From: an uncultured Victivallales bacterium
GTDB lineage: Bacteria; Verrucomicrobiota; Lentisphaeria; Victivallales; GWF2-38-69
Assembly: GCA_964523175.1 (NCBI GenBank)
Contig: CAZGAI010000001.1
Span: forward strand, 13,408-41,955
DNA: 28,548 nt
Direction of reading: 5' to 3'
Shown: piece by piece, positions 1 to 6,030 of the stretch
Layout: each line of letters begins with the position of its first letter
Numbering within the stretch: the stretch's first letter is position 1
Made by a program: the position numbers and the translations under genes
Notes under the pieces: generated by a model
Told to the model about the DNA's origin: nothing
Seen by the model: only the letters and a program-made list of their open reading frames with translations
The model's database searches: none

Positions 1-133
1 GCTCACTCCCTCCAGGGAGGGGAACTTGCTCACTCCCTCCAGGGAGGGGAACTTGCTCACTCCCTCCAGGGAGGGGAACTTGTCTCACTCCCTCCAGGGA
101 GGGGAACTTGCTCACTCCCTCCAGGGAGGGGAA
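1..133 (+). repeat. Tandem array of a 27-bp palindrome-containing unit (GCTCACTCCCTCCAGGGAGGGGAACTT), about 5 copies, possibly continuing left of the window
   Basis: Units at 1-27, 28-54, 55-81, 82-109 (one extra T) and 110-133 (truncated). Each contains the dyad TCCCTCC-AG-GGAGGGG. There are no unique spacers. Confidence 0.97.
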
Positions 134-187
134 TCTGCCTGATTTTCGTATCTAAAACTATAGAATTTAGATTGAATGACTTCATTT

Positions 188-589
188 TTAGTTCCCCTCC
201 TTGGAGGGGTTAGGGGTGGGTGCATTTTTCTTAATCCATTCTTCTATAATACTTGCGACATAGGTTGGATCATTTTTTACACTCAAATCGTCAAAACGTA
301 AAAATCTAACACCAAAAGACTCAAGCTTTATCTGTCTTTTATCATCCTTAATTTCTGCTAATCGATTATAATGAGTTATTCCATCTATTTCAATTGCAAG
401 CATAAGCTCTTTGCAATAAAAATCAACTATATACTGGTCAATAGGTCGCTGTCGATCAAAGTCATACCCTAAAATCTGTTTCTGCTTAAGTTTCTTCCAT
501 AATAAAATTTCTGAAAGAGTCATATTTCTGCGAAGTTCTTTTGCTAAATTTTTTAGTTTCGAATTATATGGAATTATTATGTTTTTCAC
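188..589 (-). CDS. DUF559 / Vsr-like (PD-(D/E)XK-type) endonuclease domain protein, 133 aa, GTG start
   Basis: Typical DUF559 motifs: A(K)ELRRNMTLSE.LLW..L, F.RQRPI..YIVDFYC, AIEIDG..H, RQ..LE..G..FLRF. The C-terminal APTPNPSKEGN is encoded by a repeat copy. Confidence 0.9.
   Translation of the reverse strand: MKNIIIPYNSKLKNLAKELRRNMTLSEILLWKKLKQKQILGYDFDRQRPIDQYIVDFYCKELMLAIEIDGITHYNRLAEIKDDKRQIKLESFGVRFLRFDDLSVKNDPTYVASIIEEWIKKNAPTPNPSKEGN
191..228 (-). repeat. Palindromic REP-like repeat, downstream-type copy D1, overlapping the 3' end of the DUF559 gene
   Basis: GTT-CCCCTCC-TT-GGAGGGG-TTAGGGGTGGGTGCATTTT. Core at 194-209. Bases 205-228 are identical to 754-777. Confidence 0.93.
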
Positions 590-594
590 TTAAC

Positions 595-635
595 TCTTTA
601 CTCACCCCTTAATCCCCTCCCAGTAGGGGCAACTT
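595..635 (+). repeat. Palindromic REP-like repeat, upstream-type copy U1
   Basis: TCTTTACTCACCCCTTAAT-CCCCTCC-CA-GTAGGGG-CAACTT. Core at 614-629. Bases 595-621 match 2173-2199 at 26 of 27 positions. Confidence 0.93.
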
Positions 636-739
636 ATCTGCCGTTCTTTATATAAAATTTCAAAAATTAAATACTCATAATTTATAAGAAATATAGTCAA
701 TTGTTTAGTCCCAAGCTAAAATGTACTTATCAGTTTTTT

Positions 740-777
740 GTTCCCCTCCCAGTAGGGGTTAGGGGTGGGTGCATTTT
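740..777 (-). repeat. Palindromic REP-like repeat, downstream-type copy D2, supplying the hydA stop codon
   Basis: GTT-CCCCTCC-CA-GTAGGGG-TTAGGGGTGGGTGCATTTT. Core at 743-758 is identical to 614-629. Confidence 0.93.
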
Positions 778-2138
778 CTTTTAATAAAACGACCATACCC
801 TTTTTTACCGATGAATATATTATCTTTGACAATAATTTTACCTCTGGCCATTGTTAATACCGGATACCCTTGAACAATCATTCCTTCGTAGGGTGTATAA
901 TCAACATTCTGGTGAAGCATGCTGTTAGTTATTTTAACTTTTTTATTGGGATCAATTATTACAATATCAGCATCTGAACCGATAGAAATTGTCCCTTTTT
1001 TGGGATAAAGTCCCATGATTTTAGCCGGGTTTTTGCAGCATATATCCACAAACCGTTCAATACTGATTCGATTTTTCATGACCCCTTCAGAGAACATGAG
1101 CGGTATTCTTGATTCAACACCAGGAATTCCACCTGGACATTTTCTAAAATCTTTAGATGCCATTTTTTTCCTCAAGCTTGAACTAAATGGGCAATGGTCT
1201 GTTGCAAAAGTTGAAATACTGCCATCTATCAACCCCTCCCATAAAAGAGCTTGATTGGATTTATTTCGAATTGGAGGGCTGCAAATATAATTTAAACCTT
1301 CCATATCAGGTTTTTCATACATCGTATCATCTAAAAATAAATAATGAGGGCAAGTTTCAGCAATAACATTTTGTCCTTTACTTTGGGCCAATTTTATATA
1401 TTCCAACCCTAATGCATTTGATAAGTGAACTATATAAAGGGGAGCATTCTCTGCCATATCCGCTAAAAGAATTGCTCTATTAATAACATCAGCTTCGCAC
1501 TGAAAAGGTCTGCTTCTTTCGTGGTAAACCGGATCTATTTTTCCAGCTTCAAAATAATCATTTCTTAAAAAATTAACAACTGAATCATTCTCCGGATGGA
1601 CAGTAAGTAAACCGCCTTGCTTTTTAATTTCTCTCATAATCTGAAGAACTTCGCAATCCTTCATTTTAAATTCATATGTGAAATATGCTTTAAAACTTGG
1701 AATGCCTTCATCATTAATTATTGTTTTTATTTCATTAAGTATATTTTTATCAAGGTGTTGAAAGACTCCGTGAAAACCATAGTCAATAACAGCTTTATCC
1801 CGGGCATATTTATGGTAAACATCAACCTGGTGTTTAAGACCGCACCCTTTAGGGCCAAAGCCCATATGATCTACAATAGTGGTAGTTCCACCACATGCTG
1901 CAGCGACAGTTCCAGTATAAAAATCATCCTCAGCTCTAGCAATTCCTACATCTAAATTAAAATGAGTATGGACGTCTACTCCACCGGGAATAACATACTT
2001 ATCAGTTGCATCAATAATTTCTGCATTGAGAATAGTTATATTCTCAGCAATATCTACAATCTTTTCATCTTTTATGCAAATATCACTATTGAGCAGGCCT
2101 GATTCTGTAACTAATTTCCCATTTTTAATTATAATCAT
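759..2138 (-). CDS. hydA: Dihydropyrimidinase / D-hydantoinase (amidohydrolase superfamily), about 459 aa
   Basis: PGGVDVHTH (HxH metal motif), GT.AAACGGTTTIVD, SFKAYFTY (carbamylated Lys region), VHPEN, YIVHLS, ETCPHYL, SPPIR, ATDHCPF, GS.ADIVI. Start moved to the ATG at 2138 (MIIIKNG...) because the GTG at 2183 lies inside repeat U2. Confidence 0.9.
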   Translation of the reverse strand: MIIIKNGKLVTESGLLNSDICIKDEKIVDIAENITILNAEIIDATDKYVIPGGVDVHTHFNLDVGIARAEDDFYTGTVAAACGGTTTIVDHMGFGPKGCGLKHQVDVYHKYARDKAVIDYGFHGVFQHLDKNILNEIKTIINDEGIPSFKAYFTYEFKMKDCEVLQIMREIKKQGGLLTVHPENDSVVNFLRNDYFEAGKIDPVYHERSRPFQCEADVINRAILLADMAENAPLYIVHLSNALGLEYIKLAQSKGQNVIAETCPHYLFLDDTMYEKPDMEGLNYICSPPIRNKSNQALLWEGLIDGSISTFATDHCPFSSSLRKKMASKDFRKCPGGIPGVESRIPLMFSEGVMKNRISIERFVDICCKNPAKIMGLYPKKGTISIGSDADIVIIDPNKKVKITNSMLHQNVDYTPYEGMIVQGYPVLTMARGKIIVKDNIFIGKKGYGRFIKRKCTHP

Positions 2139-2172
2139 TAGGGATATACCTGTTATTTGCTTTTTATCAAGT

Positions 2173-2211
2173 TCTTTACCCACCCCTTAATCCCCTCCCT
2201 GGAGGGGAACT
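2173..2211 (+). repeat. Palindromic REP-like repeat, upstream-type copy U2
   Basis: TCTTTACCCACCCCTTAAT-CCCCTCC-CT-GGAGGGG-AACT. Core at 2192-2207. Confidence 0.93.
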
Positions 2212-2326
2212 ATCAATTCTGCGCTGGGAGAATTGATCATGTCTGTACTTCTTTCCCGAAAAGGGAAAGTTAGAATTTTTATTTGTTTCCTCATGCTCTA
2301 TGTATATTGGTGTAATGAACTTTTCA

Positions 2327-2357
2327 GTTACCCTCCCTGGAGGGGGCAGGGGTGGGT
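2327..2357 (-). repeat. Palindromic REP-like repeat, divergent downstream-type copy D3
   Basis: GTT-ACCCTCC-CT-GGAGGGG-GCAGGGGTGGGT. Core at 2330-2345; 15 nt (2331-2345) are identical to U2 2193-2207. Confidence 0.88.
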
Positions 2358-2377
2358 TTATTGTTAATAGCCCACCC
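2350..2377 (-). terminator. Stem-loop just 3' of ppk1 (possible terminator or mRNA 3'-end stabiliser)
   Basis: GGGTGGG (2350-2356) pairs with CCCACCC (2371-2377), extended by TATT/AATA. It lies 25 nt past the ppk1 stop. There is no clear U-tract on the ppk1 strand. Confidence 0.4.
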
Positions 2378-2401: not shown

Positions 2402-4492
2402 TTACTTCTTTTTTTCAAAAATCATTCTCACTGTTTTTTTTTGTTTCGGTCTGGATTTTTTCAAAACTTGATAAGTTTTTAGCTGGCTTCTTGTTGAAGA
2501 GTCTCTTTTTCCTTTAGGGTAGTTTCCATAAGCATTTAATTTCCTGCCTTTATATGTATCAAGTAGCTGCAGGTCTAGGGTTTGTCTAATTAAATCCTGG
2601 CTAAACTGACTTTCAACAGGAAAGAGCAGTTCAATTCTTCTATCAAGATTTCTAGGCATCCAGTCTGCACTTGATAAATAATATTCCGGGTTTCCATTAT
2701 TTGCAAAGTAAAATATTCGGCTATGCTCCAAGTAGCGGTCTACAATGCTGATAACGGTAATATTTTTTGTATTAATCCCTGGTTTTAAGCAGCAGGTGCC
2801 CCGAATAATAAGGTCAATTTTTACACCTGTATATGCTGCTTTGTATAGGTGCTCTATTATTTCTTTATCAACAAGAGAATTCATTTTAGCAATAATATGA
2901 CCAGGACTATGTTTAGTCGAATTTCTAGCTTCTCTATCAATAAGACTGATAAATTTTTCTCTAAGGTTAAATGGTGCAACGGCAACCTTGTTCCATACAG
3001 GGGGTTCAGAGTAGCCTGTCATAACATTAAATAGAGCGGCAATATCTGAGCAAAGTTCAGGGTCTGTTAAAAACATACCAACATCGGTATATATTTTTGC
3101 AGTACTGTCATTATAGTTACCCGTAGCAAGGTGTAAATATCTTCTGATGATTCCTGACTCTCTTCGGACAATCAATAAGGCTTTGCAGTGAATTTTTAAT
3201 CCACCCATACCGTAAATTACATGTGCACCTGACTGTTCAAGTCTTTTCGCCCATGCAATATTTCTGCTTTCATCAAAACGTGCTTTTAGCTCAACAATAA
3301 CAGTTACCTGTTTGCCATTTTCTGCTGCCATTTGGAGGGCATGTACAACAGGGGAGTCACCGCTGACCCTGTATAATGTATGCTTTATTGCCAGTACATT
3401 AGGGTCTACTGCTGCTTCATTTAATAGTTCGGTCACATAGTCAAAACGTTCGAATGGGTGCATGAGCGGTATTGATGACCACTGTTTGATTGATTCAAAA
3501 ATTGATTCATTTTTCTTAAATACAGGTATATCCAGCGGTATAATTTGCTTATCAACTAGTTTCGGCTTTGTTATTAAAGGCATAAGTTCAAAAAAGCGGG
3601 AAAGATTAATGGGGCCATTTATTTCATAAACAGAATCTAAAGATATCCCCAACTTGTTTATCAACCATGAAGAAAGCTTATTTTTTACACCTTTTGCTAT
3701 TTCAAGGCGAATAGCTTTTCTTTTATTCGCAGCCTTAAGTTTTGTTTCTATACAGGTTAAAAGATCAACTGTTTCTTCATCTTCTATTGCAAAGTCCATA
3801 TCTTTTGTTATCCTAAACGGAAAGGCAGATAAAACAGTGCACCCTGTAAACAGCATTTCAATATGTTCTAAAATCAAATCTTCCAGTAGAATAAAAGCTT
3901 TTTCAGAATTATAATAACTTACTTTAATAAAGCGGGGAAGGACAGAGGGAACTTCAACAAAACCATAATATCCGTTTTCCTTGTTATTCTTTTTCAAATT
4001 TACAAGGATTTCAATTCTTATGTTGTTTATAACAGGAAATGGATGAGTTGGGTCTACTCCAATTGGAGTTAAGACAGGCAGAACATCTTTCTCAAAAAAA
4101 AATTTCATCCGCTCTTTTTCTTCAAGGCTTAGGTCTTCAGGCTTTAAAAGATGAATACCGGCGGTCTTTAATTCTTTCAGAATAGTATTCTGGTAATAGT
4201 TATAGAGTCTTCTTACAAACAGGCGGGTTCTTGCATGAATCAGCTCTAATTGTTTAGCTGGAGTTAATCCTGCAGGGTCTTCGGTTGTATGTCCTGCTTC
4301 ATAGTTTTGTCTTACTCCTGCAACCCTAACCATAAAAAATTCATCAAGGTTGTTACTGAATATTGCCATAAATTTAAGGCGTTCTAATAGAGGGTTGCTG
4401 TGGTCAAATGCCTGGTCAAGAACCCTTGAATTAAAGTCCAACCAGCTCAATTCTCTATTAATAAAATGAGTTTTATCAATATTTTTTTTCAT
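2402..4492 (-). CDS. ppk1: Polyphosphate kinase 1, 696 aa
   Basis: FINRELSWLDFN.RVL, ERLKF.AIFSNNLDEFFMVRVAG, ELKARFDE..NI.WA..LE..G.HV.YG..GLKIH.K, HLATGNYN, YLEHSRIFYF, SADWMPRNLDRRIE. Confidence 0.98.
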   Translation of the reverse strand: MKKNIDKTHFINRELSWLDFNSRVLDQAFDHSNPLLERLKFMAIFSNNLDEFFMVRVAGVRQNYEAGHTTEDPAGLTPAKQLELIHARTRLFVRRLYNYYQNTILKELKTAGIHLLKPEDLSLEEKERMKFFFEKDVLPVLTPIGVDPTHPFPVINNIRIEILVNLKKNNKENGYYGFVEVPSVLPRFIKVSYYNSEKAFILLEDLILEHIEMLFTGCTVLSAFPFRITKDMDFAIEDEETVDLLTCIETKLKAANKRKAIRLEIAKGVKNKLSSWLINKLGISLDSVYEINGPINLSRFFELMPLITKPKLVDKQIIPLDIPVFKKNESIFESIKQWSSIPLMHPFERFDYVTELLNEAAVDPNVLAIKHTLYRVSGDSPVVHALQMAAENGKQVTVIVELKARFDESRNIAWAKRLEQSGAHVIYGMGGLKIHCKALLIVRRESGIIRRYLHLATGNYNDSTAKIYTDVGMFLTDPELCSDIAALFNVMTGYSEPPVWNKVAVAPFNLREKFISLIDREARNSTKHSPGHIIAKMNSLVDKEIIEHLYKAAYTGVKIDLIIRGTCCLKPGINTKNITVISIVDRYLEHSRIFYFANNGNPEYYLSSADWMPRNLDRRIELLFPVESQFSQDLIRQTLDLQLLDTYKGRKLNAYGNYPKGKRDSSTRSQLKTYQVLKKSRPKQKKTVRMIFEKKK

Positions 4493-6030
4493 TATTTACC
4501 TATTAACTGTATCTTAAATCCAAAGATTTCTTTAAATAAATCCGCTTTTTTCCTACTTGTCCAAATTTCAAGAATTAAATTAGTGGGTCCATCAAGTGTT
4601 ATTTCTAACAACTGTTTTCTATAATTTAACTTGACATCAACAATTCTTAAATTGTGAGCAAAAATCAGTGCATCTGCTATTCTTAGTATTGCTGCAAGAA
4701 AAGTAACAGTAACTCTGGCTTCTTCTGAGAGAAAAGAGTATTCTATGTGAGTATCTTTTGGAAATGCCCGCCGATGATATCTTGCTGTTGCGGCGATGAT
4801 TTCTCGTTCTTTTTCTACAACACCCGGGATTTGACTGTTCCGTATTAAATAATAGCTGTGTTTGTGATGTCGTCTTGTATTTACAAAAATTCCGATATCG
4901 TGTAGTGTTGCAGCAATTTGCAGCAGTTTTCTGCTTTTGACCTGCTGACCGTGCAGGTACTTAGTTTTATCAAAAATTGTTAGAGCTGCTTGGGTTACAG
5001 CTTCGGCATGTATACTATCGTATTTATATTTTTCCCCTAATGTTTTTACACATGATTCCAAATGGGGAGCAAAAGGGTCTTTTATATTAGAGATTTCATT
5101 AATAAAATCATTAATAATAGCATCTCGTGTACTAATCAGCGGTATAATTAGCTTATCTATCTTGGTTGCATTTAAGAAATGATATAAAATTCCGCAGCTT
5201 GGTTCCATGCTTTGAGCTAATGTTTCCGAAATGTCATATTTTTCTGCAATTTCTGTCGGCGAGAGTTCTGATATTTTAGAGTAAATTTCTTCAAATTTAT
5301 TTTTTGTGAGAGATAATACCTGCGTCTTAGGTTGATTTAGGCCGAAATCGAGTTTCAGGAATGCTCTGACAGATGATCCCATACCTATCATTAATCCATT
5401 TTTCAAACTTAATGAAGATTGAGTCAGTACTCCAACAGCCTCTGTTTTAACAAAAGGCTTTATTGCTTGTTTAAGCTGTCTGGCATTCATTGGTCTTTCG
5501 AGTTCTTCCACAAGTCTCAGCGAGCCTATCCTGATTGCCTCTGAACTTTTTAAAATACCTTTTTCTATGAAAGATATTTGAGAAGTACCCGTTCCGATAG
5601 CACAGGCGATTGCATTTTTTTTATTAAAGGCAAACTGTTCGCCGATTACTTTTTTCAAGGCAAGGAACATTATTCTGGCTTCTTCGGGAGACTCAAGGGT
5701 TTTAAGTTTGATACCACTGATTCGGCTTACCCTGTCAATAAATAATACACTGTTTGTAGCTTCACGTACTGCAGAGGTTGCGACAGCCCTAATATGATCC
5801 ACTTTATATTCCTTAATTACTGTAGAAAAATCCTTCAATATTTTTCCAACCAGAATCATGTTGGCAGTGCTGATTTTGCCTTTTGTAAAAACATCTAAAC
5901 CTAAAGGAGCTATTTGTGTCAATCGTTCTAAAGTCTCATACTTTCTTCCATCACTCATGATTTGGACTATTTCCAGTCTGGCAAAATGAGCTCCAACATC
6001 AATAACAGCAATTGGTCCTTTAGGTTTCAT
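4492..6030 (-). CDS. ppx: Ppx/GppA exopolyphosphatase with C-terminal HD domain, 512 aa
   Basis: IAVIDVGA, ATSAVREATN, EEAR, IGTGTSQIS (ASKHA fold); LHDIG, HHKHSYYLI.NS, RYHR, AAILRIADAL (HD domain). Its stop overlaps the ppk1 ATG (TAATG), indicating translational coupling. Confidence 0.93.
   Translation of the reverse strand: MKPKGPIAVIDVGAHFARLEIVQIMSDGRKYETLERLTQIAPLGLDVFTKGKISTANMILVGKILKDFSTVIKEYKVDHIRAVATSAVREATNSVLFIDRVSRISGIKLKTLESPEEARIMFLALKKVIGEQFAFNKKNAIACAIGTGTSQISFIEKGILKSSEAIRIGSLRLVEELERPMNARQLKQAIKPFVKTEAVGVLTQSSLSLKNGLMIGMGSSVRAFLKLDFGLNQPKTQVLSLTKNKFEEIYSKISELSPTEIAEKYDISETLAQSMEPSCGILYHFLNATKIDKLIIPLISTRDAIINDFINEISNIKDPFAPHLESCVKTLGEKYKYDSIHAEAVTQAALTIFDKTKYLHGQQVKSRKLLQIAATLHDIGIFVNTRRHHKHSYYLIRNSQIPGVVEKEREIIAATARYHRRAFPKDTHIEYSFLSEEARVTVTFLAAILRIADALIFAHNLRIVDVKLNYRKQLLEITLDGPTNLILEIWTSRKKADLFKEIFGFKIQLIGK

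Follow-up and report, generated by a model that had tools for sequence, protein, structure and literature searches.

The window analysed here is a 28,548-nucleotide stretch of DNA from an uncultured Victivallales bacterium. Its first 2.4 kb carry the system in question, a gene for a nuclease of the DUF559 family set among copies of a short palindromic repeat. The genes follow in the order DUF559, dihydropyrimidinase, then ppk and ppx, all on the minus strand, and housekeeping DNA of an ordinary kind makes up the rest of the window. Neither a transposase nor a DNA methyltransferase was found in the window, and there were no matches to tRNAs or Rfam families. A sequence-only reading had described ten copies of a dyad core in the first 2.4 kb and none elsewhere, forming three head-to-head doublets with AT-rich spacers of about 57, 104 and 115 nt amid which an intact DUF559 gene lies. 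This description is confirmed, and the features are as follows.

1..133, minus strand: tandem array of a 27-nt shortened unit (hairpin + GTGAGCAAG), 4.9 copies
134..190, no strand: AT-rich spacer of ~57 nt in the doublet 3' of DUF559
188..589, minus strand: DUF559 / Vsr-like PD-(D/E)XK nuclease gene, 133 aa from GTG 589 (PF04480)
191..223, minus strand: arm-hairpin unit GCACCCACCCCT-AA-CCCCTCCAAGGAGGGG-AAC, which encodes the DUF559 tail APTPNPSKEGN; stop codon at 188-190
600..633, minus strand: hairpin-arm unit directly 5' of the DUF559 start, in gene orientation GTTGCCCCTACTGGGAGGGG-ATTA-AGGGGTGAGT
634..739, no strand: AT-rich spacer of ~104 nt in the doublet between the dihydropyrimidinase gene and DUF559
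740..773, minus strand: arm-hairpin unit over the 3' end of the dihydropyrimidinase gene (final codons CTHP and TAA stop, 759-761)
759..2183, minus strand: dihydropyrimidinase/hydantoinase gene, a host gene between two doublets and outside the element
2178..2210, minus strand: hairpin-arm unit 5' of the dihydropyrimidinase gene
2211..2326, no strand: AT-rich spacer of ~115 nt in the doublet between ppk and the dihydropyrimidinase gene
2327..2358, minus strand: arm-hairpin unit 3' of ppk, degenerate (ACCCTCC stem, GCA linker)

A motif scan of the window with the core CCCCTCCNNGGAGGGG, allowing at most one mismatch, returns ten matches, which start at positions 7, 34, 61, 89, 116, 194, 614, 743, 2192 and 2330 and all fall within 1-2345. 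At the same threshold no match occurs in 2346-28548, and 100 shuffles yield none. Perfect cores are limited to the copies at 194 and 2192. The five copies in the array read TCCCTCC-AG-GGAGGGG, with a 6-bp stem plus a T/G position, those at 614 and 743 contain GTAGGGG, and the copy at 2330 begins with ACCCTCC.

The repeat unit is longer than this 16-bp core. It spans 31-33 nt and consists of an arm and a hairpin (AACCCACCCCT-xx-CCCCTCC-nn-GGAGGGG-AA), the arm being a repeat of the first five bases of the stem. In gene orientation, an L unit comprises the arm (A)CCCACCCCT, a linker of 2-4 nt, CCCCTCC-nn-GGAGGGG and AAC, and an R unit is its reverse complement. The intergenic regions of the cluster are all ordered L, AT-rich spacer, R. 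The DUF559 gene is therefore bracketed in the order R-gene-L. As single-stranded DNA, the two units of the doublet at 595-778 pair with each other into one long hairpin (-19.8 kcal/mol, z = -2.05). Single units fold weakly, with energies of -5.6 to -6.6 kcal/mol and z of -1.4 to -1.6.

The tandem array has a period of 27 with 98% matches and is cut by the window start. Contig L001 shares 802 identical nt with the window; its array consists of six units and a terminal full copy, and a RidA gene follows. Contig L002 has one unit, so that arrays of six and one units accompany 802 nt without a difference. The 27-nt units are contiguous and lack spacers, which rules out a CRISPR-like (clustered regularly interspaced short palindromic repeat) array.

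Units of this repeat also reach into coding sequence. The last 11 codons of the DUF559 gene (APTPNPSKEGN) are encoded by the L unit at 191-223, and the stop codon comes directly after. The unit at 740-773 gives the dihydropyrimidinase its C-terminal end, ...KRKCTHP*, and in a cyanobacterial metagenome-assembled genome (MAG; L145:5762-6169) a unit ends a GNAT acetyltransferase as ...KPTPNPSLEGN. Because units supply the last codons and the stop of unrelated host genes, unit insertion rewrites C-termini.

The DUF559 protein matches Pfam PF04480 with 99.2 bits against a cut-off of 20.6 (E = 1.6e-28); the database gene call begins at an internal ATG and gives 111 aa (P0003). Its score against NCBIfam NF007294, 63.5 bits, is under the equivalog cut-off of 218, so the protein is not the E. 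coli-type orthologue. A Pfam scan of the window protein gives no Vsr match. By sequence the match in the Protein Data Bank (PDB) is 3hrl (E = 6e-11). The AlphaFold2 model has a predicted local distance difference test score (pLDDT) of 85.9, with a disordered tail. The top Foldseek matches of this model are the DUF559 structure 3hrl and the homing endonuclease I-Bth0305I (3r3p; E = 2e-4, TM 0.76 on target, phmmer E = 0.059), followed by Vsr (1vsr; E = 0.064). The predicted active-site residues D56, E67, D69 and H73 are invariant among 26 sequences. PADLOC returns only weak generic nuclease matches, and a known defence system is ruled out.

The family is large: 18,240 cluster representatives match the DUF559 core at E <= 1e-3. 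Some representatives (P0297, P0253 and P0288) have two or three DUF559 domains within one open reading frame (ORF). In P0297 (1214 aa), two DUF559 modules with GC-rich repeat-encoded linkers (PSPREGVGEGSGVRAE) lie inside an N6-methyltransferase-like protein with an NPPY motif. Such ORFs might result from insertion into a gene or from gene calls that read through.

A specific, heritable partnership of this DUF559 clade with arm-hairpin repeats is supported by what surrounds its homologues. A first homologue search found more than 4000 relatives of the protein. Among the 120 closest (58-87% identity), about 118 end in the repeat-encoded tail PTPxPSxEGN; the strict form is present in 107, nearly all the others have a decayed version, and 15 carry the tail in two to four tandem copies. 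At the other end of the gene, over-called N-termini of homologues translate the R unit as PLPGGVRGGF or PSWEGLGVG.

To avoid circularity, 80 independent loci were taken from a metagenome search with an alignment profile of the core that lacks the tail. Perfect C-rich/G-rich hairpins occur in these loci at 0.84 per 100 nt in the first 100 nt upstream of DUF559 and at 1.28 per 100 nt in the first 100 nt downstream. Beyond 1 kb of the gene the density is 0.012 per 100 nt, which makes the local enrichment ~70-100-fold. An upstream hairpin is present in 60 of the 80 loci and a downstream hairpin in 62. The enrichment is absent at other gene ends within the same loci, and hairpins cluster near the gene likewise in 20-kb loci of close homologues. 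The sequence-only reading had asked whether repeat density peaks at DUF559 genes; it does, and an even scatter around the gene is excluded.

A negative control came from viral contigs, where hairpins are not enriched beside 42 distant homologues of DUF559 (<=42% identity), L233 being the exception. In this GC-rich viral or proviral contig (L233:2840-3520), a DUF559 gene of 41% identity has perfect inverted repeats of its own on both sides, each with the hairpin CCTCCCCCGC-nnnn-GCGGGGGAGG. L233 suggests that more distant DUF559 clades have flanking repeats too. Close relatives of the window gene were not found in the viral contigs, which yielded distant homologues only (<=42% identity), and a plasmid collection contains no DUF559 homologue at E <= 1e-15. 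No conserved neighbour and no C5-methyltransferase partner of DUF559 was found among 86 neighbours in the 80 loci. Many homologues, including copies of the window gene, are located on contigs of 0.5-3 kb that end in repeats, and the repeats appear to break short-read assemblies.

Units at different loci are of different types. Arm GGGGTGGG occurs with stem CCCCTCC, arm GGGGTGTG with CCCCTCT, arm GGGGGATG with CCCCCTT and arm GGGGGGTG with CCCCCCT. Compensatory changes between the types preserve both the palindrome and the arm's copy of the half-stem. The upstream and downstream types agree fully in 39 of the 45 loci typed on both sides. Types also follow the protein, a co-variation that had been proposed from the window alone and is borne out here: identity averages 59.5% within a flank type versus 53.5% between types, a difference reached in 0 of 2000 permutations, and the nearest protein neighbour has the same flank type in 51 of 61 cases. 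Representatives at 42-68% identity have matching alternative tails, for example, TPLNPLSRGD and GHPSQEG. At third codon positions, the majority frequency is 0.94 in the unit versus 0.64 in the gene body, an indicative value from seven loci only.

Mixed types stand side by side in L020, L023, L135, L108 and the downstream region of L300. For example, a type A arm-hairpin is followed by a hairpin-arm of the CCCCTCT or CCCCCTT type. Doublets can therefore be mixed, and a locus can hold several types.

Comparison of related sites reveals gain or loss of both repeats and gene. In relatives whose dihydropyrimidinase is 84% and 67% identical to that of the window (L150/L151 and L152), this gene is followed by 35-39 bp and RidA, with no repeat. 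In L149, where the flanking gene is 94% identical and synteny is complete, the site holds only an L-205 nt-R doublet and no DUF559. The outer junctions of this doublet are the same as those of the window, the ends of the window spacer at 634..739 are homologous to its spacer, and a second repeat cluster is kept on the other side of the dihydropyrimidinase gene. L149 fits gene loss by recombination between two R units, and gain is the alternative. Inverted terminal units are present, and the empty sites, those of the 84% and 67% relatives, are too distant to define a target-site duplication.

At other sites the gene is stable while its flanks vary. For the closest homologues (83-86% identical), the site is between xseA and pheA, with the parts ordered L-spacer-R-DUF559-L-spacer-R. 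One DUF559 allele is found between metK and a methyltransferase gene in 24 contigs. The DUF559 DNA is identical in the five alleles compared pairwise, and eight loci have six different lengths of the upstream repeat region. In the near-clonal population at this metK-DUF559 site (L300-L309, ~3700-4000 and ~4405-4700), the upstream region varies in the number of hairpin units (1-3), a duplicated hairpin-arm module and short 'gacgaag' repeats, and the downstream hairpin has two alternative nested palindromic inserts. CysS-DUF559-IspG synteny extends across lineages with flanking proteins 67-82% identical. In a Bacteroidales representative of this site (L094:1088-4291), about 15 tandem 63-nt units (KPTPDHSQEGNPKEDNPAKMI) lie 3' of DUF559 and continue in frame into ispG, which results in one open frame of 1068 codons; in other lineages the site has a single unit. 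An integron attC/cassette arrangement is ruled out, since an integrase is lacking and the genes between the units are housekeeping genes whose synteny is conserved.

Units are also dispersed without the gene. The type A unit was found in 21 stretches of viral contigs and in at least 119 stretches of species-representative genomes. The latter belong to Cyanobacteria, Bacteroidota, Ignavibacteriales, Calditrichota, Verrucomicrobiota, Latescibacterota, Brocadiaceae and others, with GC contents of 33-64%. Dispersed units take the form of solo copies, doublets and arrays, and 132 of 170 copies among the matches listed are intergenic. In Okeania sp. SIO3B5 the unit is present in at least ten stretches, and several genomes have it at multiple loci; the copies of the window are all within 2.4 kb. 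DUF559 is the only nuclease-type family that recurs beside ~170 unit copies. The sequence-only reading had named a RAYT (a transposase of repetitive extragenic palindromic, or REP, elements) or an insertion sequence (IS) with the same ends as a finding that would count against a role for DUF559. None turned up: neither the 150 ORFs adjacent to the unit nor BLAST clustering, with ~1.1 Mb of flanks covered, reveals a recurring transposase or RAYT/Y1_Tnp, and protein families other than DUF559 do not recur there either.

Some dispersed copies are part of larger repeats. In filamentous cyanobacteria (Okeania, Moorena, Anabaena), tandem heptamer arrays (GGGAGTC, GGAGACA, GGGAATC) and longer lineage-specific repeats enclose the unit; loci of this kind are L037, L039, L045, L054, L057, L063, L113, L122, L132 and others. 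A composite repeat, in which a hairpin-arm and an arm-hairpin are separated by ~38 nt, is present at several loci (L052, L059, L087, L095, L134). Its hosts include Bacterium UASB14 and a Candidatus Moduliflexus MAG (L134). This composite corresponds to the arrangement around DUF559, minus the gene.

We lean toward a partnership of the REP/RAYT kind as the best explanation, in which repeats are paired with a Vsr-like nuclease outside the HUH enzymes that would recognise and cleave them and so promote their spread. From the observed association, locality, co-variation, presence or absence between relatives and hypervariability of the flanks, we infer recognition, cleavage and a route of spread. 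The DUF559 protein would recognise the arm and hairpin of its own repeat type and nick or cleave there. Host recombination and replication repair of these lesions may then copy, duplicate or delete units locally, which would give rise to arrays, doublets and hypervariable flanks. Now and then, repair might also carry a unit, or the entire module, to another copy or a new site. Where units are directly repeated, recombination between them would delete the gene, with a solo doublet as the remnant. A wider proposal, which we advance tentatively, is that DUF559 clades are the dedicated enzymes of a cross-phylum superfamily of arm-hairpin repeats, each cutting its own type and driving its duplication and dispersal.

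Several points weigh against the favoured explanation. A DUF559 gene is present in only 7 of the 119 genome stretches listed and in none of the 21 viral stretches, which leaves ~94% of the unit-bearing stretches listed with no DUF559 nearby; these counts are slight underestimates of DUF559 because fixed 8-kb blocks were used. The gene is stable at one site across 24 and 16 contigs and is syntenic across lineages. Identical copies of the gene at different loci, which would point to its recent movement, were not seen. Differences in array length could partly reflect assembly collapse, and co-variation could arise from simple co-inheritance of the gene and its flanks. PD-(D/E)XK nucleases hydrolyse DNA; they cannot join it by themselves or perform strand transfer, and would not account on their own for insertion at naive sites. 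Finally, the same data fit a homing-type reading and one in which solo copies are relics of lost modules.

The DUF559 gene might be a free-standing selfish gene of the homing type, whose product cuts gene-less repeat copies that are then converted by repair from a gene-bearing copy. Solo units and doublets would be targets or scars of gene loss in this case, not elements mobilised in trans. Its relatives in fold and sequence agree with this, as the closest are 3hrl and I-Bth0305I (3r3p), PADLOC gives a weak homing-endonuclease match, and DUF559 has been linked to the EDxHD homing family (PMC9403480). So does the comparison of the window with L149, since the gene is present or absent at a site with identical outer junctions and L149 retains repeats around the same host gene without DUF559. 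Short gene-less hairpin-arm/arm-hairpin junctions exist as well. We nevertheless consider homing unlikely: no intron, intein or phage context was found, the gene is kept at syntenic sites over long divergence with no sweep through alleles, and the model would explain neither how units arrive at naive sites (the dihydropyrimidinase-RidA spacer, for instance) nor why hundreds of solo copies occur in genomes and phages with no gene close by. Alternatively, the repeats might be moved or generated by something unlinked (a RAYT, an IS200-like or other transposase, or a host replication process), with DUF559 as a passenger or preferred neighbour. For example, repeats might insert at DUF559 ends, or the gene might have been captured once between two units and then inherited. 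Most unit copies are far from any DUF559, units overlap the 3' ends of unrelated genes (dihydropyrimidinase; GNAT in L145), and the cyanobacterial unit is embedded in lineage-specific longer repeats and heptamer arrays. What makes this reading rather improbable is that no transposase family recurs in ~1.1 Mb of unit flanks, that the unit-DUF559 junction is fixed clade-wide, and that enrichment is confined to DUF559 flanks and does not extend to other gene ends in the same loci. Moreover, random insertion would not provide DUF559 clades with different types that match on both sides.

In a further reading, the nuclease does not recognise the repeat. An expression role would leave the solo copies, the doublets at other genes, the arrays and the cross-phylum conservation unexplained, and there is little chance that the units are simply cis elements of DUF559 (acting as terminator, mRNA stabiliser or ribosome-binding region, or through 5'-3' pairing of their complementary arms) or inverted repeats of an invertible switch. 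Their positions exactly at the 5' and 3' gene boundaries, their complementary arms and the GGAGG within the 3' stem strand would suit a cis element, but no T-run follows the hairpin, single units fold weakly and there is no Rfam match. An intrinsic terminator is a weak candidate given the lack of a T-run and the modest hairpin energy. As for a switch, predicted targets of programmed inversion show a 14-fold enrichment of the DUF559 domain-containing protein (PMC9881135), yet no recombinase is adjacent. It is very improbable, finally, that DUF559 is an ordinary Vsr-type mismatch-repair nuclease with REP-like intergenic hairpins nearby by coincidence. Coincidence does not account for the ~70-100-fold enrichment, for flank types that match or for the in-frame tail, no C5 DNA methyltransferase is adjacent in the window or the 80 loci, and Pfam finds no Vsr match. 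In its favour are the relation of the fold to Vsr (1vsr), the Joint Genome Institute (JGI) label 'very-short-patch-repair endonuclease' on homologues, the sequence CCWGG in many hairpin loops and the action of a Caulobacter DUF559 protein with a cytosine methyltransferase (PMC12907096).

If the REP/RAYT-like explanation is true, one of the commonest nuclease domains without an assigned function would gain a role, and this function would be testable as sequence- or structure-specific cutting of a defined 31-nt unit. The explanation would also account for a 31-nt unit that is nearly unchanged in Cyanobacteria, Bacteroidota, Verrucomicrobiota and others. Symbiosis of a resident nuclease with repeats, as in REP/RAYT, would have arisen at least twice with unrelated enzymes (PD-(D/E)XK and HUH). 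A nuclease with such a long matched recognition unit, if that is what DUF559 is, could serve as a tool. In practical terms, units appear to break assemblies, they lengthen ORF calls by spurious tails and extensions, and they give neighbouring genes their stop codons.

Several known systems resemble this one in part. The DUF559 protein VsrA of Caulobacter pairs with ScmA, a cytosine methyltransferase (PMC12907096). Vsr/Dcm and VsrA-ScmA have a nuclease of the same superfamily as the window protein, and VsrA is of the same Pfam family. In contrast to these pairs, the window gene has no methyltransferase partner or conserved neighbour, and its flanks are matched palindromic repeats. The EDxHD/Vsr-like homing endonuclease I-Bth0305I shares the catalytic fold and is likewise encoded by a small, selfish-looking gene that is variably present at its site. 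However, the DUF559 gene lies outside introns (no intron RNA families), inteins and phage DNA, among chromosomal housekeeping genes. It is flanked by its own inverted repeats, is retained in synteny over long periods and has a repeat that is dispersed genome-wide.

IS elements and miniature inverted-repeat transposable elements (MITEs) have terminal inverted repeats and intergenic insertions in common with the DUF559 system, and in both cases there are short derivatives without the gene whose ends are those of the gene-bearing unit (window versus L149). Unlike in IS elements, DUF559 is the only ORF, and transposases of the DDE, HUH, serine and tyrosine classes are all absent. The gene-bearing form was not seen in several identical copies, and the gene is conserved like a resident gene.

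The cyanobacterial small dispersed repeats that Elhai et al. reportedly described in 2008 are said to be ~21-27 nt long, to share a hairpin, to lie in heptamer tandem repeats and to form nested insertions. To our knowledge, no enzyme has been assigned to them. The cyanobacterial copies of the unit look like these repeats of Nostoc, a likeness to their reported description and not to the sequence. Among the inversion targets of Milman et al. 2023, the DUF559 domain-containing protein has an odds ratio of 14.3 and the endonuclease domain-containing protein one of 9.6 (PMC9881135). Enrichment of these entries means that inverted repeats overlapping the genes were picked up. This is a table entry only, with no link to a repeat family, dispersal or mobility, and it is the nearest prior hint of a connection between DUF559 and repeats. 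In the literature searched, the unit sequence was not found, nor was a link between DUF559 and repeats or a joint mention of RAYT and very-short-patch repair, and among the 22 of 25 DUF559 papers listed no title concerns repeats; the cyanobacterial repeats of 2008 were not compared by sequence.

The features of REP elements and of REPINs, their hairpin-forming doublets, together with the RAYT enzyme (HUH/Y1) were reportedly set out by Nunvar in 2010, Bertels and Rainey in 2011 and Ton-Hoang in 2012. The DUF559 system departs from them in several respects. Its enzyme is a PD-(D/E)XK nuclease and not an HUH Y1 protein, and no Y1_Tnp is found beside the units. In place of a 5' GTAG, the foot is (A)CCCACCCCT with a linker of 2-4 nt, and the unit has an arm that duplicates the stem's 5' half. 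Translation continues in frame through the 3' unit, which forms the protein tail, and one unit type is common to several phyla. Because there is no HUH enzyme and no GTAG, the system is not a member of the REP/RAYT family. Its architecture is REPIN-like, and the sequence-only reading, in which DUF559 may cut and spread the repeat, has partial support. Both systems have short GC-rich palindromic extragenic units, whose inverted, spacer-containing doublets fold into a long hairpin, and in both an enzyme gene is bracketed by inverted units. This gene is present as a single copy and inherited vertically, with repeats that vary around it; many dispersed copies lack it, and repeat type is matched to enzyme clade. 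The recurrence of this pairing across phyla suggests a previously undescribed repeat-plus-enzyme system that is similar to REP/RAYT and employs a different enzyme.

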